Below are positions 2,602 through 63,761 of a DNA stretch of 64,000 nt, piece by piece. Origin of the DNA: an uncultured bacterium (lineage in GTDB: Bacteria; Patescibacteriota; Minisyncoccia; Phycocordibacterales; UBA918); the NCBI GenBank assembly GCA_965652925.1, contig CBFGXL010000002.1:4881-68880 (forward strand). Direction: 5' to 3'. The notes beneath the pieces are model-generated. The model was not told the DNA's origin. It searched no databases and saw only the letters and a program-made list of their open reading frames with translations. The stretch's first letter is position 1, and every line of letters starts with the position of its first letter. A program made the translations under genes and the position numbers.

Positions 2602-2619
2602 TATTTGAATGATTTTAAG

Positions 2620-3312: not shown

Positions 3313-3426
3313 ACGTTGTAAATTATGTGTGTTTGTTAATTACTTCTACTATTATCTCTTAATTTTCCTAGACTTTTTGATCGAACGAAGGGCTTCTGTG
3401 GATTACTTTTGCTTTGTCAAATAAGG

Positions 3427-38019: not shown

Positions 38020-38083
38020 ATTTAGTATGTGATTGTTGACAAAGAATATATCTATAGCATAGCAAGCTCAGCTATATCTGTAA

Positions 38084-40078: not shown

Positions 40079-40124
40079 GGGGGATGTGATGACCCCAACA
40101 CTATAGCACGGAAGGCTCAGTAGA

Positions 40125-41783: not shown

Positions 41784-41902
41784 GGAACTTAAGTTTCTTA
41801 TTGATTACGTGTAGTACAACTATACCGAAAGCGAAAAGTTGCGCGAAATCATTCCAACATGAACCATTTGGCAACTTTCGTAGGTTATAGTATACGAATA
41901 TT

Positions 41903-43153: not shown

Positions 43154-43779
43154 ATTTTTGTCTTTGAATATACGACCAAATATCCAAGGGGAATTTTTTC
43201 AGTTAAGCTTCTATACTTCCTTGAAATTTTATTAAGGGATCTATCCAATGAAACTACAATTTTTTGTAAGGAATTACGCAAAAAGTTAGTCGGTACAGCG
43301 TTGCGAATAAGCTGAAAAAAAAGTGAGAGTGGCCCAAAACCTAAGGGGTATATATTTTCAACACTCAAAGCATATTTCTCTGCCAATCGTCTATAAGCTG
43401 AAACGGTATACCTTAAATAGTCATCAGGTGACCCATGTATGTGGTACATAAATGGTGCCGCAATTACAATTTTGCCTCCATTTTTCACACAACGAACCTG
43501 CTCACTGAATACATTTTCAAATTCAAATACGTGTTCCATAACATTCAAACAAATTGCATGGTCGTATGAAGCATCTTCGAAGGGAAACCTCTTTTCTATA
43601 TCTACAAAGAAATCTGGTTCGCACGCATTATCAATATTAATTACGGTAAAACTATGTTCACCTTTAATGAGTTTATGATATCCGGACCTTTTGCTTCCCC
43701 CAACGTCAAGAATGCTACCCTCTAACTGCAATTCTCCTATTAGTCGATATTCTTCATTGCGAATGATTGAGTAATTCAT
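43150..43779 (-). CDS. Class I SAM-dependent methyltransferase (Methyltransf_11-like).
   Basis: It has motif I ILDVGGSKRSGY, a post-I acidic residue, and motif II/III. Confidence 0.65.
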   Translation of the reverse strand: MNYSIIRNEEYRLIGELQLEGSILDVGGSKRSGYHKLIKGEHSFTVINIDNACEPDFFVDIEKRFPFEDASYDHAICLNVMEHVFEFENVFSEQVRCVKNGGKIVIAAPFMYHIHGSPDDYLRYTVSAYRRLAEKYALSVENIYPLGFGPLSLFFQLIRNAVPTNFLRNSLQKIVVSLDRSLNKISRKYRSLTEKIPLGYLVVYSKTKI

Positions 43780-44567
43780 TGAGTTTTCTTAACAGCTTTT
43801 ATAATAAATCGATGAGGGTTTGAGAGGTTTACTTTTTCAATGGTATGATCGCTAAACTTAGATATGAATTCCTCTGCATCTTTAATCAGATCAGCATGCA
43901 CCTCCCCAATGTAAGCATCTGCAAATTCAAGCGGGTTACTGTCACCGAAAAGAGCCTCTTCCGCTCCCTCAATGTCAAACTTAATGATATTTGCTCGATC
44001 AGTATTACATATACGTAGAAGTGATTGAAGTGTGTGGACAGGTACAGAAACGATATTCTTGACATCCGAACGGGATTTGAAAGAATTGCCAAGACTACTT
44101 GCAACGATATTCAGATCGGCAAAACCATCTTTTTCAGCAACACCCGCTTGGATTGGAGTTATTTTTGAGATGCCTGAGGTATTTTTCAGGAGTCTTTTAA
44201 AAGTTTCCGGTGCTGGCTCAACTGCGTAAATGTGCGCATCAGGGTACTTTAAATGATAGTACAAAGTTGTATCACCAAAGTGGGCCCCTAGATCCAGAAT
44301 AACCTTGGGTTCTGCTCCAAAATCCCAGTTGTACTCACCTAAAAGAAAAACCTCACTGAGTGCTGCTAAGTCAACAATTGACTCAATATAAACATTAAAA
44401 GGTTTATTCAAATAGATTAAATTAAAGCGCATTTCTTTACCACGCAAAAAAGTTTTACGAGTAAGAGCGAAGTACCACAGCTGTAAAATGAGAATCACCG
44501 TACGCAAGTACGAGCCTCCTGAAAAGGCGCTGGCAAGCCTTGGTATTAAATTAAAAAGTATGTACAT
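43776..44567 (-). CDS. FkbM-family methyltransferase.
   Basis: ILDLGAHFGDTTLYY, IYAVEPAPETFKRL and IIKFDIEGAEEAL are characteristic of Methyltransf_21/FkbM. It overlaps the upstream gene by 4 bp. Confidence 0.75.
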   Translation of the reverse strand: MYILFNLIPRLASAFSGGSYLRTVILILQLWYFALTRKTFLRGKEMRFNLIYLNKPFNVYIESIVDLAALSEVFLLGEYNWDFGAEPKVILDLGAHFGDTTLYYHLKYPDAHIYAVEPAPETFKRLLKNTSGISKITPIQAGVAEKDGFADLNIVASSLGNSFKSRSDVKNIVSVPVHTLQSLLRICNTDRANIIKFDIEGAEEALFGDSNPLEFADAYIGEVHADLIKDAEEFISKFSDHTIEKVNLSNPHRFIIKAVKKTQ

Positions 44568-44582
44568 AATTAAAATTACATC

Positions 44583-45059
44583 TTAATCGATATTCTTTAT
44601 CACACGTGCTGGAACACCCACTGCTACAACATTTGCAGGAATATCTTTTGTTACGACGGCACCAGCACCAATAACGCTATTTGCCCCAATCACTACCCCG
44701 GGATTAATGATCGCCCCTGAACCAATCCAAACCCCGTCATTGATAAGTACTCCTTTCTCAAAGTGTGCACGATCTTCCATCTTTTTTGTGTAATCTAATC
44801 CAGTGGTATTTATAACAACAAATGGTGAGATATGAACATGACTACCAATAATTATTTCAACACGTCCATTTAAAAAACAACCAGCATTTATTGATGTGTC
44901 TTCACCAATGCTAATTTTTTCGGGTGAAATAACTGTAATGGCTCCTAAAATTCTACTTCTCTTTCCAAACGAACCAAATACTATTGAGTACCCAAACGTA
45001 CGAAGCCATTTCATCCTCCCTAAATACTTTAAACGCAAGAATCTTACAATGGAATTCAT
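44583..45059 (-). CDS. Hexapeptide-repeat (LbH) sugar O-acetyltransferase.
   Basis: The C-terminal hexapeptide repeats GSGAIINPGVVIGANSVIGAGAVVTKDIPANVVAVGVPARVI mark a WbbJ/NeuD-like acetyltransferase. Confidence 0.75.
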   Translation of the reverse strand: MNSIVRFLRLKYLGRMKWLRTFGYSIVFGSFGKRSRILGAITVISPEKISIGEDTSINAGCFLNGRVEIIIGSHVHISPFVVINTTGLDYTKKMEDRAHFEKGVLINDGVWIGSGAIINPGVVIGANSVIGAGAVVTKDIPANVVAVGVPARVIKNID

Positions 45060-45065
45060 TTAAAT

Positions 45066-45881
45066 TTATTGCTTAGAGATTAAAAATAACTTAAAGAGAT
45101 CATACCCCCCATCGACCCACTTTTTGACGGAACGGGTGCTTTGGTTCTTTTCGATAAGGGTTCGAAAAAGTATATCTAAACTTGGTCTATAAAAGCCAGT
45201 AATTGCAGAATACTGCTTTGTGTACCCTGCCCGGGCAACCTCGTTCATTGTTTCTTGAGTGAAATATCGAGCCGTACCGAACGGATACGCAAAATCTGTA
45301 ATTTCAATGCCGAGCTCTGATTCGAGCTTGCTCTTATCGCCCAATACCTCTCCGTATACTTCTTTTGCGGTAAGGAGGGCGAGATTTGGATGGGTAACTG
45401 TATGCCCCCCAACACTATGTCCTTCTACAACCAGTTGATGCGCCCCATTCCACGTAAGCGGCTTTTTGGGAGAAATAAGCAACCTGTCGCGCATGTACAC
45501 CTCAATTTTTTGTTCGTCATGTGCAATATCAAGTAGGGTTGAGTTTATAAAAAATAACCCTTTGAGGTTGAATGATTCCAAAATCGGTAAACAAGTATCT
45601 ATCCATGATTGATACCCATCATCGAATGTGAGGAGGATATTGATCCTGTTCTGATTGAATTCTTGATTATGAAATTGTGTTGGAGTAATTACCGTGTAGT
45701 TTTTAACGAGCATTCCGACAACTTCTTCAAACCACTTTTTGTCAGAAACGTCATGGAAACACAGCACACGCACGAGTGGACCTTTTCTCCTTTTAATTTT
45801 CTGATACACAAAAGTAACTCCTGATATGGAGATAACAGATACAAGAAAATCTCTTATTATATGTTTCATGATATTCCCCAC
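45066..45881 (-). CDS. Polysaccharide deacetylase (NodB-homology / CE4 domain) with an N-terminal TM anchor.
   Basis: It has the TFDDGY motif, a downstream H..H metal-binding region, and an N-terminal hydrophobic segment. Confidence 0.7.
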   Translation of the reverse strand: MGNIMKHIIRDFLVSVISISGVTFVYQKIKRRKGPLVRVLCFHDVSDKKWFEEVVGMLVKNYTVITPTQFHNQEFNQNRINILLTFDDGYQSWIDTCLPILESFNLKGLFFINSTLLDIAHDEQKIEVYMRDRLLISPKKPLTWNGAHQLVVEGHSVGGHTVTHPNLALLTAKEVYGEVLGDKSKLESELGIEITDFAYPFGTARYFTQETMNEVARAGYTKQYSAITGFYRPSLDILFRTLIEKNQSTRSVKKWVDGGYDLFKLFLISKQ

Positions 45882-46696
45882 TCTGTATTAAGATCACGAT
45901 CCAGAAGTCCTGATAGTTTTTTTGTGTCTTCAACAAAATACTTTGCGAGCTCTTTGGTATCAATTTCTTTTCCAAGATCTGTATTTTTTGTATTAAGAGA
46001 ATGTATGAAATCTGGAAAACCAGTCTTACGTATTGTATGTACAAATTTGTCTAAGCCAATCCCTCTTAAGTATTCTGCACTGTAGTGCATGACTCTACCA
46101 AGAAATATACTTTTGGGGACTCGGGCAATGTTTACTTGCGAATAGAGCATAGAAGCTTCAAACTTGTCATCAACACCAAGAAATTGGTATATTCTTTTCA
46201 TAAACGTTTTTGGGTCTTTCTGTATATCTTCATAGATAAGTACCAGAAGCTGCCCTTTTGGAAAGAACGTGAAATATCGTTGCAGTTGTTCAGAATAACG
46301 ACCTTGTTCTACGACACTTTTTTCTTGCGCCATAAACGCTTCAAACGAAACAGTCTCTGTGATCTCACCGGACTTGATAGAATTTTTATATTGAGAAATT
46401 GCGCGATCCACTGGGTTGCGAAGAATGGCAATAAGTTTTACCTCTGGATACATCTCTTTAATACGAGGAGGTGCCTCTTTGCTAAACAAGTACGAGGTTG
46501 AGAACTCACCTTTTTTTAAGCCCACTTTGCAATTTTTAAAATGTGCTTCATACCACTCCCGTCCTTCCTTAAACCGCGGCCTGCTGAAGAAATGAATCTC
46601 TTTTATAGGGGCGCATATTTCTGGATGCTCATATAAACATGCGTATACCCACGAGGTCCCCGACTTCTGTGCACCTAAACCGATAAAATTGATCAT
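45866..46696 (-). CDS. PAPS-dependent sulfotransferase.
   Basis: It has the 5'-PSB motif GAQKSGTSW and the 3'-PB motif RNPVDRAISQ. It is 276 aa, the typical size for this family. Confidence 0.8.
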   Translation of the reverse strand: MINFIGLGAQKSGTSWVYACLYEHPEICAPIKEIHFFSRPRFKEGREWYEAHFKNCKVGLKKGEFSTSYLFSKEAPPRIKEMYPEVKLIAILRNPVDRAISQYKNSIKSGEITETVSFEAFMAQEKSVVEQGRYSEQLQRYFTFFPKGQLLVLIYEDIQKDPKTFMKRIYQFLGVDDKFEASMLYSQVNIARVPKSIFLGRVMHYSAEYLRGIGLDKFVHTIRKTGFPDFIHSLNTKNTDLGKEIDTKELAKYFVEDTKKLSGLLDRDLNTEWGIS

Positions 46697-47724
46697 ATGT
46701 TGAATATACGGTGTGTAAACGTATCAAGACTGTGCGCAGCAATTACTTTTTCTCTAAGCTTCAACCGAAGATATGAGACATCTTCATTTAAAAGCTTGTG
46801 TATCACACCAGCATAACGTTCGGGGGTTGGATTTTCCAGATATAATCCATCACTCAGCAAAAGATCAACAAACGCCTTGTTACCGGTCACCGGCACGCAG
46901 CCGCACAAAGATGACTCAAGAACAGTCTTGTCCATACTGTGAGTCATTGAAGTGTTCAAAAAGACTGAAGCATTTTGATATATATGTACTAACTCTTCCT
47001 GCGTTTTCGGTCCAGTAAATTTTATGTGGTCACTAACATTTTCGGAAATACATTTTTCCTTTAATTGCGAGTAGTAGATGTCATCATCCCTATAAGGGCC
47101 AATAACAGTAAATTTAAGATCACTATTTTCAGATAAAAGTATTTTTGCCGTATCTATAAAATCTTCAAGGTGCTTCACTGGCATTATTCTTCCCACAAAA
47201 ACAACCTCCTTTTTTCTATTACTTTGACTCCCAAAACTGAACAGTTCAGTATCAATAGCCTGTCCAACAATTCTTTTCTTTTTTGTTTTCACAGCAAAAC
47301 CAGTCTCAGTAGAAGTTAGGACAGTATCCACAAACAACAATCCGAGTCTCGCAGTTATGCTTATATATCCATGAGCTTTCCACCAATAAAATCTTGTCCC
47401 AAACAACGTGCGAACAAAATAAAAAGGCGCGCCGATGATGTTATAAATTGCGCCCATGTGGTAGAAAACATATTCAACTTTTGACACAAAAAATACACGT
47501 GCAAAATACTTGTAAAATCTAAATAGATATTTGATCTTGCTCTCTCCTCCCTCTTTCCCGAGCGAATACACATACACATGAGGAGGGAAAGAAAAAACTC
47601 CTTTCTGTAGGCAGATGATGTGGACCTCATCAAAATGTTTTGCAAACTCTTCTATCCACCGATGAAAAAAGCCCAATATGGGATGGTTTTTATCTACCGC
47701 CTGCGTACAGATAAGAAGCTTCAT
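46693..47724 (-). CDS. GT4-family glycosyltransferase.
   Basis: It has a Glycos_transf_1 C-terminal domain (VFVGRIMPVKHL...LNTSMTHSMDKTVLESSLCGCVPV) and a 4-bp overlap with the sulfotransferase gene. Confidence 0.75.
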   Translation of the reverse strand: MKLLICTQAVDKNHPILGFFHRWIEEFAKHFDEVHIICLQKGVFSFPPHVYVYSLGKEGGESKIKYLFRFYKYFARVFFVSKVEYVFYHMGAIYNIIGAPFYFVRTLFGTRFYWWKAHGYISITARLGLLFVDTVLTSTETGFAVKTKKKRIVGQAIDTELFSFGSQSNRKKEVVFVGRIMPVKHLEDFIDTAKILLSENSDLKFTVIGPYRDDDIYYSQLKEKCISENVSDHIKFTGPKTQEELVHIYQNASVFLNTSMTHSMDKTVLESSLCGCVPVTGNKAFVDLLLSDGLYLENPTPERYAGVIHKLLNEDVSYLRLKLREKVIAAHSLDTFTHRIFNI

Positions 47725-47779
47725 GGATTTTGAATATCCTTTATAACACGCGGGAACGCGCGACTGTTACCTTGACAGA

Positions 47780-49150
47780 CTACGCTTGTTGGGGTGCGCT
47801 CAAGGGAGCTGCAGTTGCTGGCTCGCTATCTTCCGAAAAAACGACCTCGATGGAGTCCCTGTAGGCCAGCTTATAGGCGTTGGGATCTTCGTGGAGGCGG
47901 GTTTTGATGACATCCCGTGCGTTACGGGAGAGCTGTATGCGCAAAGAATTTGCATTGAGAATATCTACCAATTTCTGACTGAAGCTCACGACATCCTCAG
48001 CATGGCACAGTAAGGCCGACTCCCCATCAGTAAAAAGGTCTTTCCTGAGCTCGGTCTGTGCAGCGAGAATCGGTAGTCCTGCCGCTGCAGCTTTTATAAC
48101 CAGCTCGTCGCTTGCCTCAGTAGTGTCTGTGCAGATGAGCACGTCTGCGGATTTCATATAGGAAATCAAAAACGACATATCCTTCTGAAAGAGCACCTGC
48201 TGCTGAATGCCAAGTATCTCAGCACGCTTCTCAAATTCCTTTTTATTTGGACCATCACCCAAAACAACCAAACCAATACGATGTGAGTTGAGAATGGTCC
48301 GGCATGCATCCATCGCACGAAACAGCGTACTCTCATGGTCAAGCTTTCCCGCAAAAAGTGCCACAAAAGAGAACTGGGGAAATGCATCCGCATCTGAGCT
48401 CTCTTCGGACGCTTTTAAGATCGCATGAATATCAAAATGTCGAGGAAGCAATGAGAGATCCTTTATGCGCGGGTATCGTTTAATGATCTGCGCTTTTATT
48501 GCTTCAGTTGCCACACGCACACTGCCAGTACGCTTCAGTACATGTCTAGCGATGCGGAGCCGCCAGGCAGTGCCTTGTGATTTTGCTCTAAATTCCGGCG
48601 TGGTAAAATCCTCAGTGATGTGGAGCTGAAACTCACGGTCATACTTTTCGGCGATCAGCAAGCCACAAAGGCCTGATTCAAAAGGATCAAGCGCTACGAC
48701 AATATCCGGCCGAAACCCGCCTGAGAATTGTAGCTGGGAATCTGCGAGCGCAAGCGACGCATACGTCTGCAGTGGCCAGAATCGGACACTCGTGGTGTAT
48801 GCCCAGACATTGATGTGCAAACGCTCAATGCGTGGCTTTCCCTGCCAAGCCTCACACAGGATGATGATATGAATCTCGTTAAATACCTCACTGATATTAA
48901 AAAAATGAAGCTGTGAAGTAGAACCCTTTTCTAGTATGGAAGCGTCTTTTGTGACAAACAAAACACGGGACTCTGAACGGTCAGACTCGAGTATCACAAT
49001 AGGGTCCTTTTGAAGCTCAGCTTCAACCGAAGACTCCATCAGTTTTTCTTTGAGGGATTCTTCAGTAGTTGATTCAAGCACCTCATCAAGAACATGCTCC
49101 GCTCTTTTGGAGGGATCGATCCATGAGGACTTCGGGGAAGGAACAGCCAT
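47780..49150 (-). CDS. GT4-like glycosyltransferase with an extended N-terminal region.
   Basis: The C-terminal half has a Glycos_transf_1 pattern (FVALFAGKLDHESTL..., GLPILAAQT). The N-terminal ~230 aa are not assignable. Confidence 0.6.
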   Translation of the reverse strand: MAVPSPKSSWIDPSKRAEHVLDEVLESTTEESLKEKLMESSVEAELQKDPIVILESDRSESRVLFVTKDASILEKGSTSQLHFFNISEVFNEIHIIILCEAWQGKPRIERLHINVWAYTTSVRFWPLQTYASLALADSQLQFSGGFRPDIVVALDPFESGLCGLLIAEKYDREFQLHITEDFTTPEFRAKSQGTAWRLRIARHVLKRTGSVRVATEAIKAQIIKRYPRIKDLSLLPRHFDIHAILKASEESSDADAFPQFSFVALFAGKLDHESTLFRAMDACRTILNSHRIGLVVLGDGPNKKEFEKRAEILGIQQQVLFQKDMSFLISYMKSADVLICTDTTEASDELVIKAAAAGLPILAAQTELRKDLFTDGESALLCHAEDVVSFSQKLVDILNANSLRIQLSRNARDVIKTRLHEDPNAYKLAYRDSIEVVFSEDSEPATAAPLSAPQQA

Positions 49151-49189
49151 ATGTGCCTATTGTATCGCACATAATGACTCGCACGGAAG

Positions 49190-50125
49190 CTATTTATCCA
49201 AAGGCTGCTGTTTCGCCCATGCTATGTAGCGGTCGATACCTTCCCATATGCCAACCTTGGGTTCAAAACCAATACTTCGCGCAAGAGAGATGTCAGCCGG
49301 GAAACGGGAGACTTCGCCCGGTCGAGCTGGCCCATGCTCAATGTTTGCCCCAAATGCTTTTGCAATATATTGTGCAATATCTTTTATGGAAGTATTTGTT
49401 CCGCTGGCAAAATTGATCGCCTTCCCTGCTAGCTCTGGATGATGAAGCACCAAAACATATGCATCGACCAGATCATCGATATTAAGATAATCCCGGGTTG
49501 CTGTCCCCTCACCAAAAACAGTGAGAGTTTCTCCAGCAAGCGCCCTGCGGACAAGAATAGGTATGAGTGCTCCGCCTTTGCCGCTTTTCTGCCGTTCTCC
49601 ATAAATATTGAATGGGCGGACGATCGTTACGTTCACGCCGAACGATTTATAATATGCATTGCACCAACGATCTGCAGCTGCTTTAGAAGCGGCATAGGGA
49701 CTGTTAGGCGAAAGTTCTGCAGTCTCATCAAGGAGTTCTCCCTCCTTCAATGTGTGTCCGTCACCGTACACTTCGCAGGTTGAGGCATATATCATTCTGC
49801 AATGATTTTCGCGCACCGCTTCAAGGATATTATGCGTACCCATCACATTTACCTCAAGAAAGCTCAGAGGGTCTTTAAGTGACTCATCAACATTGATGTT
49901 GGCAGCGAGGTGAAAGACAACATCCTGTCCACGGACAACCTTGTCCACAACGGTTCTGTCGGTAATTGAACCATAGACCATCCGCGCACCACTAAGGGCC
50001 TCAACATTGGGTTCGATCTCCTTGGAATACGTATTGAGCACGGTCACATCATGTCCATCTGCCAAAAGGCGTTCCGAAAGATGGCTTCCCTGAAATCCTG
50101 CCCCACCGGTTATAAGTATTTTCAT
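49190..50125 (-). CDS. NAD-dependent sugar epimerase/dehydratase (extended SDR).
   Basis: MKILITGGAGFQGSHL is a GxxGxxG Rossmann motif, and there are YxxxK catalytic residues (YAASKAAAD). The ORF-track start at 50179 adds 18 non-conserved residues, so 50125 is the likelier start. Confidence 0.8.
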   Translation of the reverse strand: MKILITGGAGFQGSHLSERLLADGHDVTVLNTYSKEIEPNVEALSGARMVYGSITDRTVVDKVVRGQDVVFHLAANINVDESLKDPLSFLEVNVMGTHNILEAVRENHCRMIYASTCEVYGDGHTLKEGELLDETAELSPNSPYAASKAAADRWCNAYYKSFGVNVTIVRPFNIYGERQKSGKGGALIPILVRRALAGETLTVFGEGTATRDYLNIDDLVDAYVLVLHHPELAGKAINFASGTNTSIKDIAQYIAKAFGANIEHGPARPGEVSRFPADISLARSIGFEPKVGIWEGIDRYIAWAKQQPLDK

Positions 50126-50141
50126 GTGCTGTACTGAATGA

Positions 50142-51281
50142 TTAATGTTTGTTCCGCAATGCCTGCTCCCACGAGGCACGGTACTTGTCTAAAACCATAT
50201 CAAAAGTCGGCAGTTCTGCAATGGAACGCTGGGCGTTCTGCCCGAGACGAGTGCGAAGTTCCTCATCCTCTATTACATGCAGAAGAACTTGCGTGAATGC
50301 TTCTTCGTCTTTTGGCTCCACAATAAGCGCACTCACCCGATCTTCCACTACCTCACCTGCACAACCAACATTGGTCATCACAATGGGAGTGCCTGCTGTT
50401 GCCGCTTCAACAACCACCATGCCGAAGCCCTCAAAGTCCGAGGTAAGGACGAAACAGTCACTTTGTGTGAAGAATGCACTCAGCTCTGAACCGAATTTTG
50501 CCCCGTGGAGTATGACATGTGATGAAAGTCCGTGCTCTTTGATCTCTTTTTCCAAACTTTCCTTCTCCGGCCCATCACCGACTATGTGAAGCAATACCTC
50601 AGGATGCTTCTGCGCGATCTCCTTGATCGCACACAGCTGCATAGGAATGTTCTTAATAGGAACCAACCGATTGACGCTCACAATATTGAAGCGCGATCCA
50701 TACTGCTGATCAAAGTGTGATGTGTAATGAACAAGCTCTGCCTTCTGTTCCTCACTTTTAATTCCGGACAATCCAAGCGAAGAGACATCAACATAGATTG
50801 GTACAAGCACCATACGGTCTTCTGATATGCCGAACTCGGTTACCAGACGCTTCCAGAGTCCTTTGCTCAGTACGCGTATGGAACCAGCTCTCTTGAGAGT
50901 GAATTGGGATAGCGCTTTGCGGAAAAAGTTGAGCTTCTCAATACCCAAGACCTGCACCTCAAGCCCGCAGTGGAAGTATCGGGAAAGCAACACTCCTAAT
51001 AGACCCAGGAAGTACGTATCCTGTGCAGTGATCACGTCACACTTCTCTTCGTGCACGCGCTGCCACGCCAGCACAGCCATGCGCACAAACTGAGCAATCT
51101 TAGTGCGACCGCCGGTACCGTACACTGTAGTATTCGAAGAAAGCTGCACATGCTTCTTCTCAGGCGACGGAACAATAATCGAAAGAGATTCAAGCACTTC
51201 TCCGTACCGCACATTACGTGCAGCGACAACACTGTCTTTATTGAGTATCTGCGGGTCTAGACTGAAGCTGAGTATTTTCAT
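50142..51281 (-). CDS. GT4-family glycosyltransferase.
   Basis: It shows a Glycos_transf_1 pattern (SVNRLVPIKNIP..., EGFGMVVVEAATAGTPIV). Confidence 0.72.
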   Translation of the reverse strand: MKILSFSLDPQILNKDSVVAARNVRYGEVLESLSIIVPSPEKKHVQLSSNTTVYGTGGRTKIAQFVRMAVLAWQRVHEEKCDVITAQDTYFLGLLGVLLSRYFHCGLEVQVLGIEKLNFFRKALSQFTLKRAGSIRVLSKGLWKRLVTEFGISEDRMVLVPIYVDVSSLGLSGIKSEEQKAELVHYTSHFDQQYGSRFNIVSVNRLVPIKNIPMQLCAIKEIAQKHPEVLLHIVGDGPEKESLEKEIKEHGLSSHVILHGAKFGSELSAFFTQSDCFVLTSDFEGFGMVVVEAATAGTPIVMTNVGCAGEVVEDRVSALIVEPKDEEAFTQVLLHVIEDEELRTRLGQNAQRSIAELPTFDMVLDKYRASWEQALRNKH

Positions 51282-51286
51282 ATATG

Positions 51287-52426
51287 CTAGTGAGTAACTA
51301 TACGCGAAAGCAGCTCTACAAAATGAGCAGCTTCCCGTTCCTGTGTAAAGTCCTGAAGACGCACGCGGGCATTCTGCACCATCCGTTGGCGGAGCTGCTC
51401 ATTATCAAGAAGTCGGGCTATTACTTTAGAGAGCACTTCAGTGTCGCATGGTTCAACAAGAATACCTGAAATTTCGTCTCGTATGAGTTCAGGATTGCCT
51501 CCCACACGTGTAGACACAATAGGAACCCCCAGTTCCATGACCTCAAGCAGCTGATGTGAAAGACCTTCGTATGATGTATTGAGCACAAAGAGGTCTGACG
51601 CCTTGATGGACTCACCAAGCGCTTTTTTATCTAATCTTCCCAAGAAACGCACCTTACCCTCCAGATGCAAATTGCGTACCTTCTTTTCAAGCGCTTCGCG
51701 CTCTGGACCGTCGCCAATAATGAGAAGTGTAGTTTGAGGTCGCTCCCGCAACAAGAATGAAAACGCATCCATAAGCTCAGCAAAACCTTTCCACGGCACA
51801 AGCCTGCCTGCTGAGGTGATAACAGCACCTTCATACCCCAATGACTCTCTCAGAGCTGTTTTTGACTCAGGGATAGCAAGAGGCGAAAGTGCACTGTATA
51901 CCACATGTACATAAGAGGGTTCTACTCCCCACGTTACAATGATGTTCTTGAGGTACTCGCTTGGCGCAATCACCAGACGTGCTCTTTTAACCACAAAGCT
52001 CTGTATGGCTGCAAGCAGCCTCACCTGCAGCGGCGCTTCTTTGCGTACGTGCGTATACTCGTCGAGTGTCTGTGTGAGTCCAAAACGCTGCTGCCCTTGC
52101 TCCCATGCGTAATCGCCCCCCAGACGGATAATGAATTTCTTGCCCAGGAGCACACTTACAAGGTAGGTAGGCACACCGACACTCACTGGATCAAGTGCAT
52201 ACAGTACATCGGCTTCCCTACCTGCTCTCAGTACAGACCAGAAAAATGTAGCATGGCGCACGATCTTCGGCAGGTGACGCACCGAACTGAACGCAATAAC
52301 TTCCACAGTGCAACCGAGCCCAGGAAGCTTTTCTTCAAGCATACGTGTGTACGTAGCGGGACCGCCGATCTCAGGCGGGTAGAGTCCGGTAGCTATCAGT
52401 ACTCGTATGTTTGTAGTGTCTTTCAT
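51287..52426 (-). CDS. GT4-family glycosyltransferase.
   Basis: It has the classic E-x7-E (SYEGLSHQLLEVMELGVPIVSTRVGG) and the N-terminal Glyco_trans_4 domain. Confidence 0.8.
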   Translation of the reverse strand: MKDTTNIRVLIATGLYPPEIGGPATYTRMLEEKLPGLGCTVEVIAFSSVRHLPKIVRHATFFWSVLRAGREADVLYALDPVSVGVPTYLVSVLLGKKFIIRLGGDYAWEQGQQRFGLTQTLDEYTHVRKEAPLQVRLLAAIQSFVVKRARLVIAPSEYLKNIIVTWGVEPSYVHVVYSALSPLAIPESKTALRESLGYEGAVITSAGRLVPWKGFAELMDAFSFLLRERPQTTLLIIGDGPEREALEKKVRNLHLEGKVRFLGRLDKKALGESIKASDLFVLNTSYEGLSHQLLEVMELGVPIVSTRVGGNPELIRDEISGILVEPCDTEVLSKVIARLLDNEQLRQRMVQNARVRLQDFTQEREAAHFVELLSRIVTH

Positions 52427-52977
52427 ATGTGTAGCTGTTCGACATCATCAAAAGAACGGACGCGCACAAAGGAATCGTCAGCCTCATCCATCTGCGTATA
52501 TCGATCCATAAGCACAGCCTTGATCCCCAATTGCAGTGCTTCTTCCACATAGACCTTCCGATCATCGATAAACAGACATGCCTCTTGACGTTCTGTACAA
52601 GCATCTTTAAGCATCTGCAACGCCTGTGACTTAGAAGCACCCACTATATGCACCCGATCATCACCCACAATATCCATAACTCCTGAGATTTCTATCTTTC
52701 GTCGCTGATATAATTCCTGTACATCTTCTGCCTGATTATTAAGCGGATTGCTGCTTATATACGAGGAAACGATATCGCATGCAGTTCGATGACGTAGAAG
52801 AAAGGCATACGCGTCAGGATACACAAGCAAAGTCGCATCAAAGTGCGGGTCATGTGCAGTGAGCTCATCAAAAAGCGACGCTGAACGTTCTGCTTCTTCC
52901 AAATGAAGCGCACTCATTCGCCCCTTGAGCGCTTCTGTATTAAATATGACTCCGTCAAAATCAAGAAGGTATCTCAT
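52423..52977 (-). CDS. HAD-superfamily hydrolase/phosphatase.
   Basis: It has motif I LLDFDGVIF and motif IV FIDDR, and is small at 184 aa. Confidence 0.65.
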   Translation of the reverse strand: MRYLLDFDGVIFNTEALKGRMSALHLEEAERSASLFDELTAHDPHFDATLLVYPDAYAFLLRHRTACDIVSSYISSNPLNNQAEDVQELYQRRKIEISGVMDIVGDDRVHIVGASKSQALQMLKDACTERQEACLFIDDRKVYVEEALQLGIKAVLMDRYTQMDEADDSFVRVRSFDDVEQLHI

Positions 52978-52980
52978 AGC

Positions 52981-53991
52981 TTATACAAGAAGCTGCAGAA
53001 GAAGTGCCGCGAATTTGTCTCCATCTCCTCGCACGAGACTTCGTTGTAACACATCTCCTTTCCGCTTTATGACCTCCTCGGAACTCAGAAGATCAGCGCG
53101 GACCACTGTATACTCGCACTCATCGCAGTCATCAACAACCGGGTACTGAAATGCCTGTGCATACTTCTCAAGAAGGTGCTTCGGCACGTTGCCGGTGTTC
53201 ACGATCACACAGTCAGGTGTGCGTCCGACATACCGCGCAACTTCCTTCACATGGTCGCACGCGGACATGTTATACGTCTGTCCGGGACGCGTCATCAAGT
53301 TGGACGCAAAAACGAATTTTGCTTGTGAGGCCTGTATTGCTTCCGGCACACCTTCGACCACACAATTTGCGAGCAAGCTTGAATACAGATCTCCAGGACC
53401 AAGCAATATAAGGTCCGCATGGATGAGTGCTTCTTTTACATCATTAGTGATGTGGCCTTTTGGATTCGTTGTAAGCGAAACGATCCTCCGTTCGTAGCGA
53501 TCTTCTGGCGGTTCATCGATCTCATGCTCTCCTGCAATTACCAGACCATCGTCGTACGTTGCGACAATATGGATATCATCTTCAGTAACGGGCAGGACCC
53601 GTCCTTTAATGCGGAGCAAACGCGAAGCAGCTTTCACCGCCTCCGCTTCGCTGCCAAGTATTTGAGTGAGCGCCACCATGAAGAGATTGCCGAAGTTGTG
53701 ACCATTAAGCCCTTCCCCTTTATCAAAGCGATGCAAGAACAGCTCACGCAACAAAAGGTCGTCTTCATTGACCTCGCTTGCAAGTGCAGTAAGCGCCATC
53801 CGGACGTCCCCCACGGGCAACTGTCCAAACTCGTCCCGCAAGCGTCCCGTTGAACCTCCAGAGTCTGCCATGGTGATCACTGCCGTGATATCGACCGTGT
53901 CAGCGTATTTCTTGAGGCCCCGGAGGATAGGGTGCGTCCCCGTGCCACCCCCAATGACGACAATTGATTTCTTCCCACCCGATTTTTGCAT
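52981..53991 (-). CDS. YvcK/CofD-family protein (gluconeogenesis factor, UDP-sugar-binding).
   Basis: It has IVVIGGGTGT and ADSGGSTGRLR, the hallmark UPF0052 motifs. Confidence 0.8.
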   Translation of the reverse strand: MQKSGGKKSIVVIGGGTGTHPILRGLKKYADTVDITAVITMADSGGSTGRLRDEFGQLPVGDVRMALTALASEVNEDDLLLRELFLHRFDKGEGLNGHNFGNLFMVALTQILGSEAEAVKAASRLLRIKGRVLPVTEDDIHIVATYDDGLVIAGEHEIDEPPEDRYERRIVSLTTNPKGHITNDVKEALIHADLILLGPGDLYSSLLANCVVEGVPEAIQASQAKFVFASNLMTRPGQTYNMSACDHVKEVARYVGRTPDCVIVNTGNVPKHLLEKYAQAFQYPVVDDCDECEYTVVRADLLSSEEVIKRKGDVLQRSLVRGDGDKFAALLLQLLV

Positions 53992-58184: not shown

Positions 58185-58227
58185 GCATAAAAAGAAAAAC
58201 ACCACGATACGGACGTATCGCGGTGTT
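58185..58227 (-). terminator. Rho-independent terminator on the minus strand with a 12-13 bp stem (AACACCGCGATAC...GTATCGTGGTGTT) followed by a T-rich run, 3' of the Nudix gene. A second perfect 9-bp hairpin (58230..58253, GATGCGGGC-tcttaa-GCCCGCATC) lies immediately upstream.
   Basis: Inverted repeats read directly from the sequence. The U-tract (rc of aaaaagaaaaa at 58189..58199) follows the stem in the minus orientation. Confidence 0.5.
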
Positions 58228-58919: not shown

Positions 58920-58967
58920 TGCTACCTCCTTTGAACAGATTCAACTAATATGATACTACAAAAATGC

Positions 58968-60425
58968 TTATTTGTCAATACTCTGTGTTCGCTTCCGAAG
59001 CATGTTCGAATAGGCAAAACGGACTTGGTTTGCGAACGCGTCCCCTTGTCCGATCGAACGGATCAGCGTTGTGCGCTTGCTGATAGAGATGGCAGCATGC
59101 GCTTCGTGCGTATCGTCGGCGTACACCTGATCCGCCCGGCCGAGAATGTGCTTCAGTACCAAGCGTACATGCCAAGGTATATTGCCGAGCTTCTGGTCGG
59201 CAAGCGTAATGAGGAGAGGAGCTCTCTCTCTTCCCCGCGCAAAGAGTGCAGCAAGTGCTCCGTAACTTGCAAACAGCGCCCACTTGAACATATAGCTGTG
59301 CTCTTTCTGCAGCTGTCGAGCTATGCGCGCACCCGCAAAAGGCAGTAGGAACTTATCAGAAACATGGCCGCGCCCCACTCTGTAAAGCTTCACATTAGGA
59401 AGCGCGCATTCATCAGCCATTGCGCCTTTGGAGAATTTTGTCGTAATGACATCGAAATGGATGTTGGGCATTGCGGACATGAGGTCGCACAGTGCATACT
59501 CGGCCCCTCCTGCATCCGGGAAAAAAGTGGTTGAAAAGACGAGTACTCTTTTTTCGGTCTGTTGCACAGAACCAACTTCGGCCTTGATCTCCTGTATATA
59601 TGTCGGAAGATCGCGCTTTGCCTCCCACCCAAGCGCTTTTGTCTGCGCGTTATCGACTCCGCCATGTATGCGGTTCCCTTTGCGCTCAGGCATCATGATC
59701 ACTTCCCCGCCGAACATGGAAGCCACCTGAAGTACGCTGTATGCAGTATCAGCACCGATCCCATAACCATCACCCTGCCCTTTTTCGGACACGAGGAGCA
59801 ATCCGTCGACGATATCGGAAACATGCGTGAAGTTTCGCTCCTGCGTACCTGGACTCGTGACCGTCAGCGGCTGTCCGTTGCGGTAAAGCTCGGTGAAAAT
59901 GCGTATGAGCGTACCGTATGGGCCCGACATCTCACGCGGACCGTACACGTTGTAGAAATAAGCTATGGCATACTCAAGGCCGAACCATTGTGCGTAGTTG
60001 CACACGAGCTCTGTGTTCGTTGCCTTCATCCATGCGTAGGGACTTTGGTTGCGCCCGTCGCCTCCATCGGCAAACTTCGTTGACGACCCTGCGTATACAA
60101 GCTTGCATCCCTTGCGGCGGCAGAACTCCAGCACTGCAAATGTCCCTGGTTTGTTGAGGTCCCATACCAGTTCTATGTCTTCAAAGCTTTTTTCAGTGCG
60201 TGCATATTCTCCAAGATGAAATACGAGGTCAGGCGTCTCAGGGATAAGTGCTGCTATATCCTTCGTATGTCCAGTTCGATACTCTACTCCCTCAACATGG
60301 TTATTGGGTGTACCGGTGAAATAATTATCGAGTGAGATGACTGTATGACCATCACCAACAAGCCGCTCGCATAAATGCGATCCAATAAATCCAGCTCCTC
60401 CTGTGACCAAAATAGTTTTTGCCAT
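58968..60425 (-). CDS. Fusion ORF: extended-SDR NDP-sugar epimerase/dehydratase (UDP-glucuronate decarboxylase/dTDP-glucose dehydratase-like, ~300 aa) joined in-frame to a ~185-aa GT4 N-terminal (Glyco_trans_4-like) domain that lacks the catalytic C-terminal half.
   Basis: The N-terminal part reads MAKTILVTGGAGFIGSHLCERL...YAGSS...Y..YG. From ~aa 300 it reads KRVLVFSTTFFPDAGGAEYA, a GT4 N-domain signature, then terminates after ~185 aa. Confidence 0.65.
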   Translation of the reverse strand: MAKTILVTGGAGFIGSHLCERLVGDGHTVISLDNYFTGTPNNHVEGVEYRTGHTKDIAALIPETPDLVFHLGEYARTEKSFEDIELVWDLNKPGTFAVLEFCRRKGCKLVYAGSSTKFADGGDGRNQSPYAWMKATNTELVCNYAQWFGLEYAIAYFYNVYGPREMSGPYGTLIRIFTELYRNGQPLTVTSPGTQERNFTHVSDIVDGLLLVSEKGQGDGYGIGADTAYSVLQVASMFGGEVIMMPERKGNRIHGGVDNAQTKALGWEAKRDLPTYIQEIKAEVGSVQQTEKRVLVFSTTFFPDAGGAEYALCDLMSAMPNIHFDVITTKFSKGAMADECALPNVKLYRVGRGHVSDKFLLPFAGARIARQLQKEHSYMFKWALFASYGALAALFARGRERAPLLITLADQKLGNIPWHVRLVLKHILGRADQVYADDTHEAHAAISISKRTTLIRSIGQGDAFANQVRFAYSNMLRKRTQSIDK

Positions 60426-60433
60426 ACAATCAT

Positions 60434-61819
60434 CTATTCCGCTTTCTTTTTACCCAGCAACACAGCAATAATCCCTAATGTAACAATTCCAAAGAGACCA
60501 AGCAACGGCAGGGATTCTTTGGGGAAAGACGCAGCTTGCTCAACTGAAGCCAAGGCCAGAGCTGTTGATGAGGGTGTCTTCCTCACCACCTCATCCTTCA
60601 CCCGTGTCACCTCCTCTGTGAATGAAAAGTTGCTTGACATAAGCTCTTGTGTCACATCTTCTGTATTGCGTGCAACCGATTCTTCTTTTCTCACACTCGT
60701 TTGCGTATCCTGCGCAACGGCGGGCATTGGCTCATTCTGATCGAGGGTTGCCACAAGCTCACCCTCCTGGTCATACAGGAATACCGAAGCGAAGCTGCCT
60801 CCGAGTCGCTTGCGTTCAATGGTGATCGTACTATTGGGCAAAATGATACTGCGCAATGGAAATTGCAGTCGTTCCCTTCCTTTGAGCGTGTAACCCGATA
60901 CATTAACCTCATACTTGGCGTTATTTTTCAGAAGTACATCACCTTCGGCATTACGCGACAAAGAAAAAGTCACCGGAAGTATTGTGATCGTCGTGCGTTC
61001 AACAGCCTCATGCCGTGTATAAGTGCCGTGGAGTGTGACCACATACTCTCCAGGGTGTGTAAACACATGTGTTACCTTTTTGCCGGCATGTGTGGTGAAG
61101 TCACCGAAATTCCACGTGTACTCAAGCGAGTCAAGGAATGTCTTCCCGAGCCCAGACGGTTCTACATCAAACACAACCGGCTGGTTGACATACGCGATAT
61201 CAGGAGCACGAAGCGAGAGATCGAGTGAATTGTTCGGCAACTGCAGCTCAATGATCTTTTCATCCTCTTTGGCATCATGCTCCGCACCTTCCTCCTCCTC
61301 TTCTTCTGTATGCACCACAAAAGCATCGGGGCCAGAACCGGGAGTTGCCACAGCAGTACGCCATCCAGCATCGGTCTTCTGCGCAGTTTCTTTTGTCGTA
61401 TTATCGCCACCAATATTTTCCCAAGCATCACCACCGGCGACCTGATCCTCAAGTGTCTGATCTGCCGTGCGCAAAGACAGCGTTGCACCGTCATTGGAAA
61501 GCGAACCAGTGTAGATAAGAAAGGCTTTCCCTTCTACAGTCGCATCGTCAGTGCGTTCAAGCACCACATACTCCTTCTGATCAATCGTTCCCATCAGCTC
61601 AATGGAAAAATCTGCATGATCAGTGAGCGTCCAGCCATCAAGCGATACTGGGGCATCGCCGGTGTTATACAGTTCAATCCACTCATCGTTGGGTGAAACC
61701 GCACTTCCCATCCAGGCAATTTCACTGATGATAACTGCGCCATGCGCAATACACGGGAAAACCAGGAAGATAGACGCGGCAAGGAATCTCATGTTTCTAT
61801 GCAAGTGGCGATCTGTCAC
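60434..61819 (-). CDS. Membrane-anchored extracytoplasmic protein with a lamin-tail domain (LTD), a PKD-like domain and a C-terminal TM helix plus basic tail.
   Basis: It has a signal peptide. The LTD signature is VIISEIAWMGSAVSPNDEWIELYNTGDAPVSLDGWTL. The PKD-like signature is YTWNFGDFTTHAGKKVTHVFTHPGEYVVTLHGTY. The C-terminus is LPLLGLFGIVTLGIIAVLLGKKKAE. Confidence 0.65.
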   Translation of the reverse strand: MTDRHLHRNMRFLAASIFLVFPCIAHGAVIISEIAWMGSAVSPNDEWIELYNTGDAPVSLDGWTLTDHADFSIELMGTIDQKEYVVLERTDDATVEGKAFLIYTGSLSNDGATLSLRTADQTLEDQVAGGDAWENIGGDNTTKETAQKTDAGWRTAVATPGSGPDAFVVHTEEEEEEGAEHDAKEDEKIIELQLPNNSLDLSLRAPDIAYVNQPVVFDVEPSGLGKTFLDSLEYTWNFGDFTTHAGKKVTHVFTHPGEYVVTLHGTYTRHEAVERTTITILPVTFSLSRNAEGDVLLKNNAKYEVNVSGYTLKGRERLQFPLRSIILPNSTITIERKRLGGSFASVFLYDQEGELVATLDQNEPMPAVAQDTQTSVRKEESVARNTEDVTQELMSSNFSFTEEVTRVKDEVVRKTPSSTALALASVEQAASFPKESLPLLGLFGIVTLGIIAVLLGKKKAE

Positions 61820-63761
61820 TCGTGTTGATGCGCATCATCCTTTCAAGACGCTTCGGTGATAACGGATCGTCAATGTTCTTTTTTTCAGCGTATTCCTGGG
61901 CACCTTCCGGTACCGCTGCCTTTTCAGGCTTTTCTGCTATTGGATGCTTCGGCTGTTGGGGAGTTGCTGCTGGTTGTGAACTGTGTTCGGGTTGCACAAT
62001 CGAAGCGAGTGCCTCGCGCAAGGAAGGACTAGGCACTTCTTTAGATATATCTTTTTTATGCTCAGAGGTTTCTACGTTTTTTGTTTTCTTGTCGCTCTCA
62101 TGTGACTTATCTCTCGGTTCATGTGCAGATATAGATCGAAGCACTTCCCGCAACTCATCAAGACTTCGTGTAGATCTGCTTTGTTCCACATTACGACGGT
62201 CGGAGTTACTTGTCCCATGATTGTTTGCGTGTTCACGGGGGCGTTTTTGTCCGTCTTTATTGCCCGGGTTTTCTTTGCGCGGAGGTCTCTCATAATGCTG
62301 CTCCTTTTGCGGTTTGCTATCTGTGCTGTCTATTTTTTTCTCTGTGTCAATTTTTGCAGGAATAGAACCAGCAGTCGCGGGTGAATCAGGCATTCGTACG
62401 TCAGTTTTTTCAGCAGCGGTAGTCTGCGATTCTTTCTTAACTTCATTTCCAGGAAGAAACTCCTGCATGCCGTGCCATTGATAGATCATACGTTCTACTT
62501 CCGACCGAGGATGAGCAAATTGCTTGCGGCTTTGATGGATGATGACATTCTTGTAGGAGATCTGCGCCGGCTTGATGGGCGGTAGCGTCGTTGCCGAAAA
62601 AGGTTGCGACCCAATCCCGTCGATCATAAGCGTGAGGTAGACTTGGGCAAAACCGAGATTGACGATGTCAGGCGCCAAGAATTTTGGGGTAAAAATAGTC
62701 TCAAGCACCTCAGCATCAAAAGGCCCGACGCGGAATGACACAATTGTACCGACGTTTCCGAAAACCGCGTTGCGCACCTCTTCCTCCATCTGTTCAATGT
62801 ACTGGTGTGCGATCGTGAGGTTGAGTTTGTACTTGCGCGCTTCAGAAAGGATATTAGCAAATGTGGCGTTGGCAAATGATTGGAACTCGTCCACATAGAA
62901 ATAAAAGTTCGGCGCAGCCTGCAGTGCCTCCTGTCCCATATCTGCCCGGCTCATTGCCGCAAGATAAATGCGAGTGGTGAGCATTGATCCCAAAAGATTC
63001 GCGTTTGATTCGCCCACCAAGCCTTTGGAAAGGTTCATGATGAGAATCTTCTTCTCGTCCATTATCTTGCGGATATCGAAGCTCGACTTCGGCTGGCCGA
63101 CAATATTGCGGATAAGCGGATTTGCTGTGAACTGTCCGATCTTGTTCTTAATCGCGTCTCCCGCCTCCTGCATGTATCGCTCGTTGTACTTTGCAAATTC
63201 ATCTACCCAGAAGGACCGCACCGAGGGGTCTTTGATGTTATCCACCACCTTCTTGCGGTAGTTTTTATCAGAAAGCATGCGGTTAACTCCAAGGAGGGTT
63301 GAGTCAGGATATTCCAACAGCGCCATGAGCGTATTCTGAAGAATGTACGCCATACGCGCGCTCCATGCGTCCACCCAGATCTTCTCAAACACCGACATCA
63401 AACCCGACACCACCAAGTGGCGTTTATCGGGCCCAACGTCCTCCATGACGTTGAATGACACAGGATACTCCATATCAAACGGTGCAAAGTAGAGCACATC
63501 GTCTTTCCGTTCTTCTGGGATGTAGTCGAGGAGCGTTTCGGCTGTCTGGCCGTGCGGGTCGATGAAAGCAAGTCCGTTGCCATTCTTTATGTCCTGGATG
63601 GCCATATTCTCAAGGAGGGTCGACTTACCCATTCCTGTTTTTCCAATCACGTAAACGTGCCGGGTACGGTCTTTCGCCTTAATGCCAAAAGGCACGCTTT
63701 GCCCACGCGCATCGGTCTGTGCAAAAAAAGTGATCTGTTCAGGATCAAAACTCATTACCAA
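61797..63761 (-). CDS. P-loop ATPase of the VirD4/TraG/TraD (type IV coupling protein) or HerA/FtsK-like family, with a ~230-aa disordered charged C-terminal tail.
   Basis: It has Walker A VIGKTGMGKSTL, then FIDPHGQ, Walker B FYFYVDEFQSF, and TIAHQYIEQM (a TraG-D_C-like motif). The C-terminal tail is low-complexity K/E/R/S/P-rich. Confidence 0.55.
   Translation of the reverse strand: MVMSFDPEQITFFAQTDARGQSVPFGIKAKDRTRHVYVIGKTGMGKSTLLENMAIQDIKNGNGLAFIDPHGQTAETLLDYIPEERKDDVLYFAPFDMEYPVSFNVMEDVGPDKRHLVVSGLMSVFEKIWVDAWSARMAYILQNTLMALLEYPDSTLLGVNRMLSDKNYRKKVVDNIKDPSVRSFWVDEFAKYNERYMQEAGDAIKNKIGQFTANPLIRNIVGQPKSSFDIRKIMDEKKILIMNLSKGLVGESNANLLGSMLTTRIYLAAMSRADMGQEALQAAPNFYFYVDEFQSFANATFANILSEARKYKLNLTIAHQYIEQMEEEVRNAVFGNVGTIVSFRVGPFDAEVLETIFTPKFLAPDIVNLGFAQVYLTLMIDGIGSQPFSATTLPPIKPAQISYKNVIIHQSRKQFAHPRSEVERMIYQWHGMQEFLPGNEVKKESQTTAAEKTDVRMPDSPATAGSIPAKIDTEKKIDSTDSKPQKEQHYERPPRKENPGNKDGQKRPREHANNHGTSNSDRRNVEQSRSTRSLDELREVLRSISAHEPRDKSHESDKKTKNVETSEHKKDISKEVPSPSLREALASIVQPEHSSQPAATPQQPKHPIAEKPEKAAVPEGAQEYAEKKNIDDPLSPKRLERMMRINTSDRSPLA

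Follow-up and report, generated by a model that had tools for sequence, protein, structure and literature searches.

The 64-kb window analysed here, 64,000 nt of contig CBFGXL010000002.1 (assembly GCA_965652925.1) from an uncultured Patescibacteriota bacterium, carries two adjacent minus-strand genes, one for a predicted soluble P-loop ATPase related to type IV coupling proteins (T4CP) and one for a type-I surface protein whose head is a lamin-tail domain (LTD), referred to below as the receptor. Called as longest open reading frames (ORFs), both on the minus strand, the receptor and ATPase genes span 60434..61819(-) (461 aa, GTG start) and 61797..63761(-) (654 aa, TTG start), and in the original prediction they overlapped by 23 bp. 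That overlap is an artefact of longest-ORF calling: gene callers on four independent identical contigs start the ATPase at ATG 63755 (652 aa) and the receptor at ATG 61792 (452 aa, MRFLAAS...), the latter in agreement with the N-termini of 45 homologues. The ORF extension up to GTG 61819 is unused by the receptor gene, and the junction reads tag-aaac-ATG, leaving a true spacing of 4 nt. The ATPase protein was found in identical form on at least 17 contigs. Homologous loci retrieved for comparison are labelled with L-numbers (L001, L077 etc.), and by record name the nearest named relatives were Kaiserbacteria, Pacebacteria, Nomurabacteria and one metagenome-assembled genome (MAG) labelled Saccharibacteria, which points to a Patescibacteria genome, apparently from the Parcubacteria (Paceibacteria) group. 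The features of the pair, including those drawn from AlphaFold2 (AF2) models and their predicted local distance difference test scores (pLDDT), are:

61797..63755 (-): ATPase gene, 652 aa, T4CP family (VirD4/TraD/TrwB-like) without a transmembrane (TM) segment; stop codon 61797-61799
62466..63755 (-): ATPase motor domain, residues 1-430, a nucleotide-binding domain that probably includes an all-alpha insertion
63618..63644 (-): Walker A, GKTGMGKST, residues 38-46, read from the sequence
62883..62906 (-): Walker B, FYFYVDEF, residues 284-291, read from the sequence
62802..62840 (-): ARKYKLNLTIAHQ, residues 306-318, inside the TraG-D_C match
61800..62465 (-): disordered, charged ATPase tail, 222 aa, residues 431-652
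62130..62165 (-): tail motif 1, SLDELREVLRSI, consensus LxELRxVL, conserved columns in an otherwise unalignable tail
61800..61868 (-): tail motif 2, DPLSPKRLERMMRINTSDRSPLA, extreme C-terminus of the ATPase
60434..61792 (-): receptor gene, 452 aa; stop codon 60434-60436; from gene calls in L001-L004, homologue alignment and the junction sequence
61742..61792 (-): signal peptide MRFLAASIFLVFPCIAH, signal peptidase I type, without lipobox; from the sequence and family alignment
61337..61741 (-): receptor head, an acidic LTD, residues 18-152 (Pfam, AF2)
61241..61336 (-): poly-Glu acidic linker, residues 153-184 (sequence; AF2 pLDDT <50)
60974..61240 (-): PKD domain, residues 185-273 (Pfam, AF2)
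60737..60973 (-): third beta-sandwich, a divergent LTD-like domain (LTD2), residues 274-352 (AF2 pLDDT >92)
60530..60736 (-): disordered stalk, residues 353-421 (AF2 pLDDT ~40; unconserved)
60437..60520 (-): TM helix starting LPLLGL, residues 425-447, with a KKKAE cytoplasmic tail

Both genes are parts of one tightly packed minus-strand transcription unit. The terminator scan gave no terminator-like site above chance between them, and the first strong terminator-like hairpin beyond the pair lies at 58198..58227(-), where it follows a NUDIX gene and consists of 13 pairs and a T-run. Shortly upstream of that gene is a sigma-70-like promoter match (58950..58978(-), 11/12). The hairpin and the promoter match may bound the transcription unit of the pair; overall, the promoter/terminator scan was not above shuffled expectation.

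Chance does not account for the side-by-side position of ATPase and receptor, which recurs in dozens of species. The gene directly downstream of the ATPase on the same strand was classed for 80 species loci retrieved with the ATPase, and was an LTD-headed homologue of the receptor in 35 loci, an other-headed receptor in seven, a GT4 glycosyltransferase in 20 and a Wzy-TPR protein in 3-4, with 12 remaining genes placed in a class of 'other', at least one of which (L077) encodes a receptor-core protein with a third head type. The receptor family was at the +1 position, same strand, in at least 42 of 77 species loci (35 LTD + 7 helix-hairpin-helix, HhH). Spacers between the two genes measured 2-13 nt in most LTD-type loci, with a few longest-ORF calls that overlap or reach 62 nt. 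For the reverse test, 80 metagenome loci were retrieved with the LTD protein, 54 of which have at least 1.5 kb of upstream sequence; the ATPase was upstream on the same strand in 35 of these 54, and this ATPase-linked set takes in almost all homologues at least 37% identical to the LTD query. Six receptor-less loci (L030, L033, L041, L051, L061 and L062) possess a type IV pilin or pseudopilin gene (GFTLIELLVVIAIIGIL...) directly upstream of the ATPase, at position -1, with GT4 genes following, an arrangement that fits weakly with a competence-like theme.

The receptor slot is also where the composition of the protein changes between species. At seven loci (L008, L046, L057, L059, L066, L070 and L075) a homologous protein in the same slot bears a ComEA-type HhH head, with matches to Pfam HHH_3 (PF12836; E ~1e-21) and to TIGR00426 (ComEA HhH; 73.7 and 63.4 bits, cutoff 53.1) and with the GIGxxKA lysine retained in most of these heads. 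The PKD-LTD2 cores of the LTD- and HhH-headed forms are homologous (hhalign 99.6%, E = 1e-24, 171 columns). Because ATPases with LTD and HhH neighbours interleave in at least three places on the motor-domain tree (L008; L066/L070/L057; L075/L059/L046), sequence comparison indicates that the heads have been exchanged repeatedly in the same slot, at least three times. Such a swap with the ComEA DNA-binding domain suggests a DNA link for the pair. In the window receptor itself, a ComEA-type HhH (TIGR00426/PF12836) was absent from the Pfam and NCBIfam matches.

On its motifs and profile matches, the ATPase is assigned to the T4CP (VirD4/TraD/TrwB) family as a soluble P-loop ATPase without the usual N-terminal membrane anchor, which bears out the original prediction of a coupling-protein-like ATPase with Walker A and B motifs and a TraG-D_C-like motif. 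Residues G38-G43, K44, S45 and T46 of Walker A are invariant in the ATPase alignments, as are F284-F286 and V288-F291 of Walker B (Y287 nearly so), and most positions of the ARKYKLNLTIAHQ motif do not vary either, A306 and K310 being nearly invariant. Against Pfam, the protein matched DUF87, T4SS-DNA_transf, TrwB_AAD_bind (residues 28-336) and TraG-D_C (residues 286-352; 23.8 bits, cutoff 22), each barely over its cutoff; the DUF87 match is weak (32.7 bits), as are all of the T4CP profile matches (24-33 bits). The same profiles recur across the family: each of 39 homologues tested matches TrwB_AAD_bind, TraG-D_C and DUF87, and 29 of the 39 match T4SS-DNA_transf, always barely over the gathering score. 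NCBIfam matches were to SXT_TraD and the VirD4-like conju_CD1115 (E = 9e-11, residues 29-343), and in a PDB profile search TrwB aligned at the P-loop only (E = 0.03). An AF2 model of the motor domain, from a very shallow 39-sequence alignment, places helices at residues ~103-216 but, at a pLDDT of 51, is too unreliable to be used in a fold search. No TM segment was identified in the ATPase, the maximum Kyte-Doolittle 19-residue hydropathy across the whole protein being 1.39, and Walker A begins as early as residue 38.

An FtsK/SpoIIIE identity, which had been named as a possible outcome that would undo the idea of a DNA-handling module, was ruled out: PF01580 (FtsK_SpoIIIE) matched 0/39 family members at E ≤ 1e-2, the TM segment is absent and a region resembling the gamma domain of FtsK is not present in the ATPase. 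A HerA identity was also rejected: beyond the weak DUF87 match, the search gave neither HerA_C nor a neighbour resembling NurA.

The ATPase is a core gene of the Candidate Phyla Radiation (CPR) with a hyper-conserved motor domain. More than 8,000 database clusters match it, and the best 120 have 58-87% identity over the best local alignment, mostly at full-length coverage; against 1.84 billion representatives, it matched 21,753 clusters at E ≤ 1e-3 and 5,878 at E ≤ 1e-30. Residues 1-430 are 81-97% identical to those of 38 homologues, and across 75 species loci the pairwise identity of the motor domain has a median of 73% and a minimum of 65% (range 65-100%). For the same locus pairs, the median identity of the best high-scoring segment pair was 70% for the ATPase, 54% for RsmI, 48% for DUF4015, 46% for the Mur ligases and 34% for the receptor (LTD protein). 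Published counts are of 5,713 VirD4-like homologues in 2,918 of 3,035 Patescibacteria genomes (~96%), only 148 of them near virB4, with VirB4 in 2,417 of the genomes (~80%) and relaxases almost absent; exaptation of these T4CP homologues was suggested, and not ruled out, by the authors (PMC12102498). Surveys point to about two coupling-protein-like ATPases per CPR genome, without T4SS (type IV secretion system) context or known role. With its extreme conservation and its presence in ~96% of Patescibacteria genomes (PMC12102498), the ATPase counts among the core genes rather than the relics, and the earlier idea that the pair could be the remnant of a T4SS or competence system is rejected on these grounds.

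Outside of its orthologous group, the closest relatives of the ATPase are CPR paralogues with an N-terminal TM segment and a DUF8128 domain (PF26449), followed by phrog_5156 proteins of large Bacillus phages, including SPO1 gp27.4 (L168) and phage G gp156 (L169). The DUF8128 and ATPase paralogues often occur as tandem pairs behind a Sigma70_r4/HARE-HTH protein (L165, 4851..10988; L167, 3373..11543; L166, 8001..10730), and the DUF8128 paralogues adjoin ribosomal, SecDF or ftsQ/mur genes (murC-murB), not T4SS genes. A receptor was looked for beside the DUF8128 paralogues of L165-L167 and was not found; the sole case of such proximity is L121, where a DUF8128-type (not soluble) ATPase (1654..4031) is two small genes upstream of an LTD-family receptor gene (~6001..7125). 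The phrog_5156 phage proteins are homologues, 825-906 aa in length, of the DUF8128-type ATPase with no function annotated, and in phage G (gp155-gp156) the gene adjoining the ATPase homologue is annotated as VirB-like. Transfer of function from SPO1 gp27.4 and phage G gp156 was rejected, as they carry no functional annotation.

The receptor is a single-pass type-I surface protein composed of a signal peptide, a variable head, a PKD domain, LTD2, a flexible stalk and a TM helix. The LTD, the PKD-like domain and the C-terminal TM segment with a KKK tail that had been predicted are confirmed. In the signal peptide, P13 and the A-A-V junction are conserved in the family alignment and Cys is not. 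The head matches Pfam LTD (PF00932) at residues 25-127 (74.1 bits, cutoff 34.3; E = 1.4e-20) and its AF2 beta-sandwich is confident (pLDDT mostly 85-94). Matches to PKD_4/PKD (PF18911/PF00801) cover residues 209-276 (43/36 bits; E = 4e-11 for PKD_4), with a pLDDT >93, a Foldseek TM-score of 0.8 to the PKD domains of ColG and the WxFGDG motif of the fold reading WNFGDF. Pfam reports a second LTD stretch in the receptor, and the domain of the L077 protein equivalent to LTD2 matches LTD at E = 7e-9. The AF2 model as a whole is confident (mean pLDDT 78, domains >90), and a Foldseek search of the PDB with it returned generic PKD and Ig-like matches only; the NCBIfam model ExeM-GG matches residues 10-108.

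The C-terminal hydrophobic helix, LPLLGLFGIVTLGIIAVLLG, is followed by KKKAE, has a Kyte-Doolittle 19-residue hydropathy of 2.61 and is modelled by AF2 as a helix at residues 425-451. The resemblance of LPLLG to a sortase LPxTG signal, raised in the original prediction, does not hold: across the family the motif reads LP[YL][LF]GL, none of 45 homologues has the Thr and LPLLG forms the first turn of the TM helix (AF2, family alignment). One further ORF of the window, and no other, is anchored at its C-terminus, and it has no LPLLG-type motif. On the cytoplasmic side the window receptor has KKKAE only; in L037, L038, L057, L066, L070, L077, L083 and L084 this tail extends further and closes with a conserved acidic motif (EEFDIE, EYEILEDE, LYEITEVEE) that could be a docking peptide.

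The disordered, charged tail of the ATPase, previously put at 230 aa, measures 222 aa and has 41 K+R and 39 D+E residues. Save for the two short motifs, its columns are unconserved or unalignable among homologues. A motif related to tail motif 2, P(E/K)xxL(E/R)(R/K)(M/L)(L/M), is present in nearly all of 81 species loci, irrespective of the downstream gene; the possibility that this C-terminal motif tracks the presence of the receptor was tested, and it does not.

Downstream of the pair, a long minus-strand cluster of surface-glycan and cell-wall genes with few-nucleotide spacers includes an epimerase fusion, the NUDIX protein, several GT4 glycosyltransferases, an ATP-grasp protein, deacetylases, CofD, a sulfotransferase, PAPS synthase, Wzx, an AT3-SGNH acyltransferase, Wzy-TPR and MurB, and beyond it lie SecA, Obg, GatB and two giant repeat proteins. 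The epimerase fusion directly follows the receptor (58968..60425(-)) and joins an NAD-dependent epimerase (Pfam, within residues 1-250) to a ~200-aa C-terminal region (VLVFSTTFFPDAGGAEY...) without a Pfam match that is weakly like the N-terminal half of the neighbouring GT4 proteins; in L049 this fusion comes after the ATPase. Within the glycan cluster, 52981..53991(-) is a gene of the CofD family (2-phospho-L-lactate transferase-like), which turns up again in 10 species loci, 2-6 genes downstream of the ATPase. A sulfated surface-glycan cluster with many GT4 genes occupies ~38000..52500 and contains the AT3-SGNH gene (38084..40078), an ATP-sulfurylase/APS-kinase fusion (40125..41783), Wzx on the opposite strand (41903..43153), the sulfotransferase (45866..46696), an FkbM methyltransferase, a hexapeptide acyltransferase and deacetylases; at 42-48 kb the GC content drops from ~0.50 to 0.355-0.40, suggesting a variable or acquired island. 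The giant ORFs are adjacent, at 3427..14928(-) (3,833 aa, DUF6242/EPTP-type beta-propeller repeats) and 14932..23802(-) (2,956 aa, LVIVD repeats), and are presumably giant surface proteins.

Upstream of the ATPase, past the window end, identical contigs encode Mur ligases, RsmI, DUF4015 and an epimerase, and in the 80 species loci the recurrent neighbours were cell-wall and glycan genes, a pilin and a small TM protein. The partners expected of a transfer or competence system were searched for: VirB4, VirB6, relaxase and ComEC were found neither among the scanned ORFs of at least 150 aa in the window nor, in L001, among the genes within 10 kb that carry a Pfam annotation. The window contains no tRNA genes.

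The reading tentatively favoured here is that the pair forms a DNA-handling module, for DNA capture and translocation, and this is plausible. The T4CP family membership, the recurrent pairing and the ComEA-head swap speak for the DNA uptake or transfer module of the original prediction, which stays a tentative proposal. In such a module, the receptor head would be a ligand-capture domain for extracellular nucleic acid, and the receptor would fill the role of ComEA in competent Gram-positive bacteria. The ATPase, probably a hexameric translocase by analogy with its relatives, would be the cytoplasmic motor or hub of the same pathway, recruited to the membrane via its tail motifs and not by an anchor of its own. 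The membrane channel would be encoded outside of this locus, with ComEC or a TM-anchored DUF8128 paralogue as candidates, and the pathway would most likely serve DNA uptake for transformation or nucleotide salvage, with DNA donation less likely. Patescibacteria cannot make nucleotides and rely on hosts and scavenging. As ComEC occurs in most CPR MAGs and ComEA in only some (PMC13293708), the receptor family could be the missing ComEA analogue. A more specific version, in which the pair is a T4SS-independent, lineage-specific CPR machine for DNA import or donation, with an anchor-less motor tethered by its tail motifs and a modular LTD/ComEA-headed receptor capturing DNA, is rather unlikely.

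Several observations weigh against a DNA-handling module. The LTD head has a pI of 4.1 here and in all 45 homologues, is strongly acidic and is followed by the poly-Glu linker. The literature gives bacterial LTDs no defined biochemical role, and ExeM can degrade extracellular DNA in vivo without its LTD (PMC6085458), so that the earlier statement that bacterial LTDs are proposed to bind DNA was too strong; no bacterial LTD is known to bind DNA. Approximately 45% of ATPase loci are without a receptor, with a mosaic presence on the ATPase tree, the ATPase tail motif is retained with or without the receptor, and distant receptor homologues often have no ATPase nearby yet border GT4 arrays. The window yielded no gene for a channel, a nuclease, ComEC or a T4SS, and in S. 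epibionticum a T4CP homologue, not necessarily an orthologue of this ATPase, is reported to be non-essential (PMC12102498). Finally, the block of Mur ligases, RsmI, DUF4015, ATPase, receptor, GT4 arrays, Wzy and MurB is of conserved synteny on one strand, and given this envelope block the adjacency may be inherited rather than functional.

This last point leads to the possible, if somewhat doubtful, alternative of inherited synteny without functional coupling, where the receptor is a glycosylated adhesin or envelope protein belonging to the adjacent glycan and cell-wall genes and the ATPase, a core CPR motor, does something unrelated. The whole block, including the small TM protein, is syntenic across the same loci, the ATPase adjoins GT4 genes without a receptor in 20 loci and the receptor adjoins GT4 genes without the ATPase in L131, L148 and L155; in addition, glycosylated surface proteins typically have, as here, an acidic ectodomain and linkers with much S, T, P and E, and adhesins and surface enzymes commonly contain PKD and LTD domains. 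However, the 2-13 nt spacing of most LTD-type loci outlasts divergence of the receptor to 23-30% identity and several replacements of its head, and an adhesin would leave the repeated substitution of the head by ComEA HhH unexplained.

It is quite improbable that the ATPase is instead the genuine coupling protein of a CPR-specific T4SS (VirB4 clade nested in MPF-FATA) encoded elsewhere, delivering proteins or DNA into hosts, with the receptor as a contact or adhesion factor. The profile matches to the T4CP family are in line with this, and Gram-positive systems include coupling proteins that have no TM segment and are brought in by a membrane partner, such as TraJ/TraI of pIP501. T4CP genes are often far from virB4 and VirB4 occurs in ~80% of CPR genomes, but T4CP homologues are distributed more widely than VirB4 (2,918 vs 2,417 of 3,035 genomes) and relaxases are nearly missing from these genomes (PMC12102498). 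In S. epibionticum the T4SS is reported to be essential while the T4CP homologue is not, and, as described above, neither the window nor the Pfam-annotated genes within 10 kb in L001 include a T4SS gene, with cell-wall and glycan genes as the neighbours in the 80 loci. Very unlikely is a division- or chromosome-associated DNA translocase, FtsK-like in function on a T4CP-like fold, within a dcw-like cluster and unrelated to the receptor. The position of the ATPase among mur genes, that of a DUF8128 paralogue near ftsQ and murC-murB and the extreme conservation, typical of core cell-cycle proteins, would suit such a role; set against it are the lack of any FtsK_SpoIIIE match in 39 homologues, the missing TM anchor and gamma-domain-like region, an annotated ftsK in at least one CPR genome (TM7x) and the reported non-essentiality of the S. 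epibionticum homologue (PMC12102498).

Earlier publications already cover the ATPase family and its orphan status; in the literature examined, the pairing with a PKD-LTD2-TM receptor, the interchange of LTD and ComEA heads, the degree of motor-domain conservation and the tail motifs were undescribed. One orphan T4CP-like ATPase is now tied to a recurrent partner with a head interchangeable with the ComEA DNA-binding domain, and this interchange offers a first comparative argument as to what bacterial LTDs may bind. The outcome is a two-gene hypothesis testable in genetically tractable CPR strains (culturable Saccharibacteria). Were the lineage-specific machine to exist, it would fill the 'missing' ComEA and ComFA roles in reduced CPR genomes and provide a first defined function for bacterial LTDs, as nucleic-acid capture modules. 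Should the coupling be one of synteny only, the soluble ATPase would still be among the most conserved CPR proteins and functionally orphan.

Compared with known T4CPs, the ATPase shares the TraG-D_C region and a P-loop motor that has Walker A and B, the match to T4CP profiles (PF10412, PF02534, PF12696) spans the region that would hold the all-alpha domain and, like TraD of F, it has a long C-terminal tail closing in a short recognition-type motif. Unlike T4CPs, it lacks an N-terminal transmembrane domain, is not encoded beside VirB4, a relaxase or other T4SS genes and belongs to the chromosomal core genes of an entire superphylum, its motor domains being 65-100% identical; its resemblance to the solved TrwB is confined to the P-loop, and it is closer to the DUF8128-fused CPR paralogues and phrog_5156 than to T4CPs. 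The LTD nucleases of the ExeM/Xds type share with the receptor a signal peptide at the N-terminus, an LTD after it and a hydrophobic anchor at the C-terminus, but the receptor has no OB-fold, EEP or other nuclease domain and cannot itself be an enzyme of this type.

ATPases of the HerA/FtsK superfamily that act in DNA import or donation (archaeal Ced, Thermus TdtA), with ComFA of B. subtilis as a functional analogue, work as a cytoplasmic ATPase coupled to envelope proteins, carrying DNA through a monoderm envelope with no canonical conjugation machinery. By analogy, the same concept would apply to the pair, though CedD matches the ATPase at Walker A only, with no relationship beyond the P-loop, and a CedA-like channel is not present here. 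From ComEA, the window receptor differs in having an acidic LTD instead of HhH, a reversed topology (N-terminal signal peptide and head, C-terminal anchor) and extra PKD and LTD-like domains, in lacking the ComEA oligomerisation domain and in not being encoded in a comE operon with ComEC. Like ComEA, it is membrane-anchored and extracytoplasmic, and its same-slot relatives carry a bona fide ComEA HhH repeat as the distal domain.

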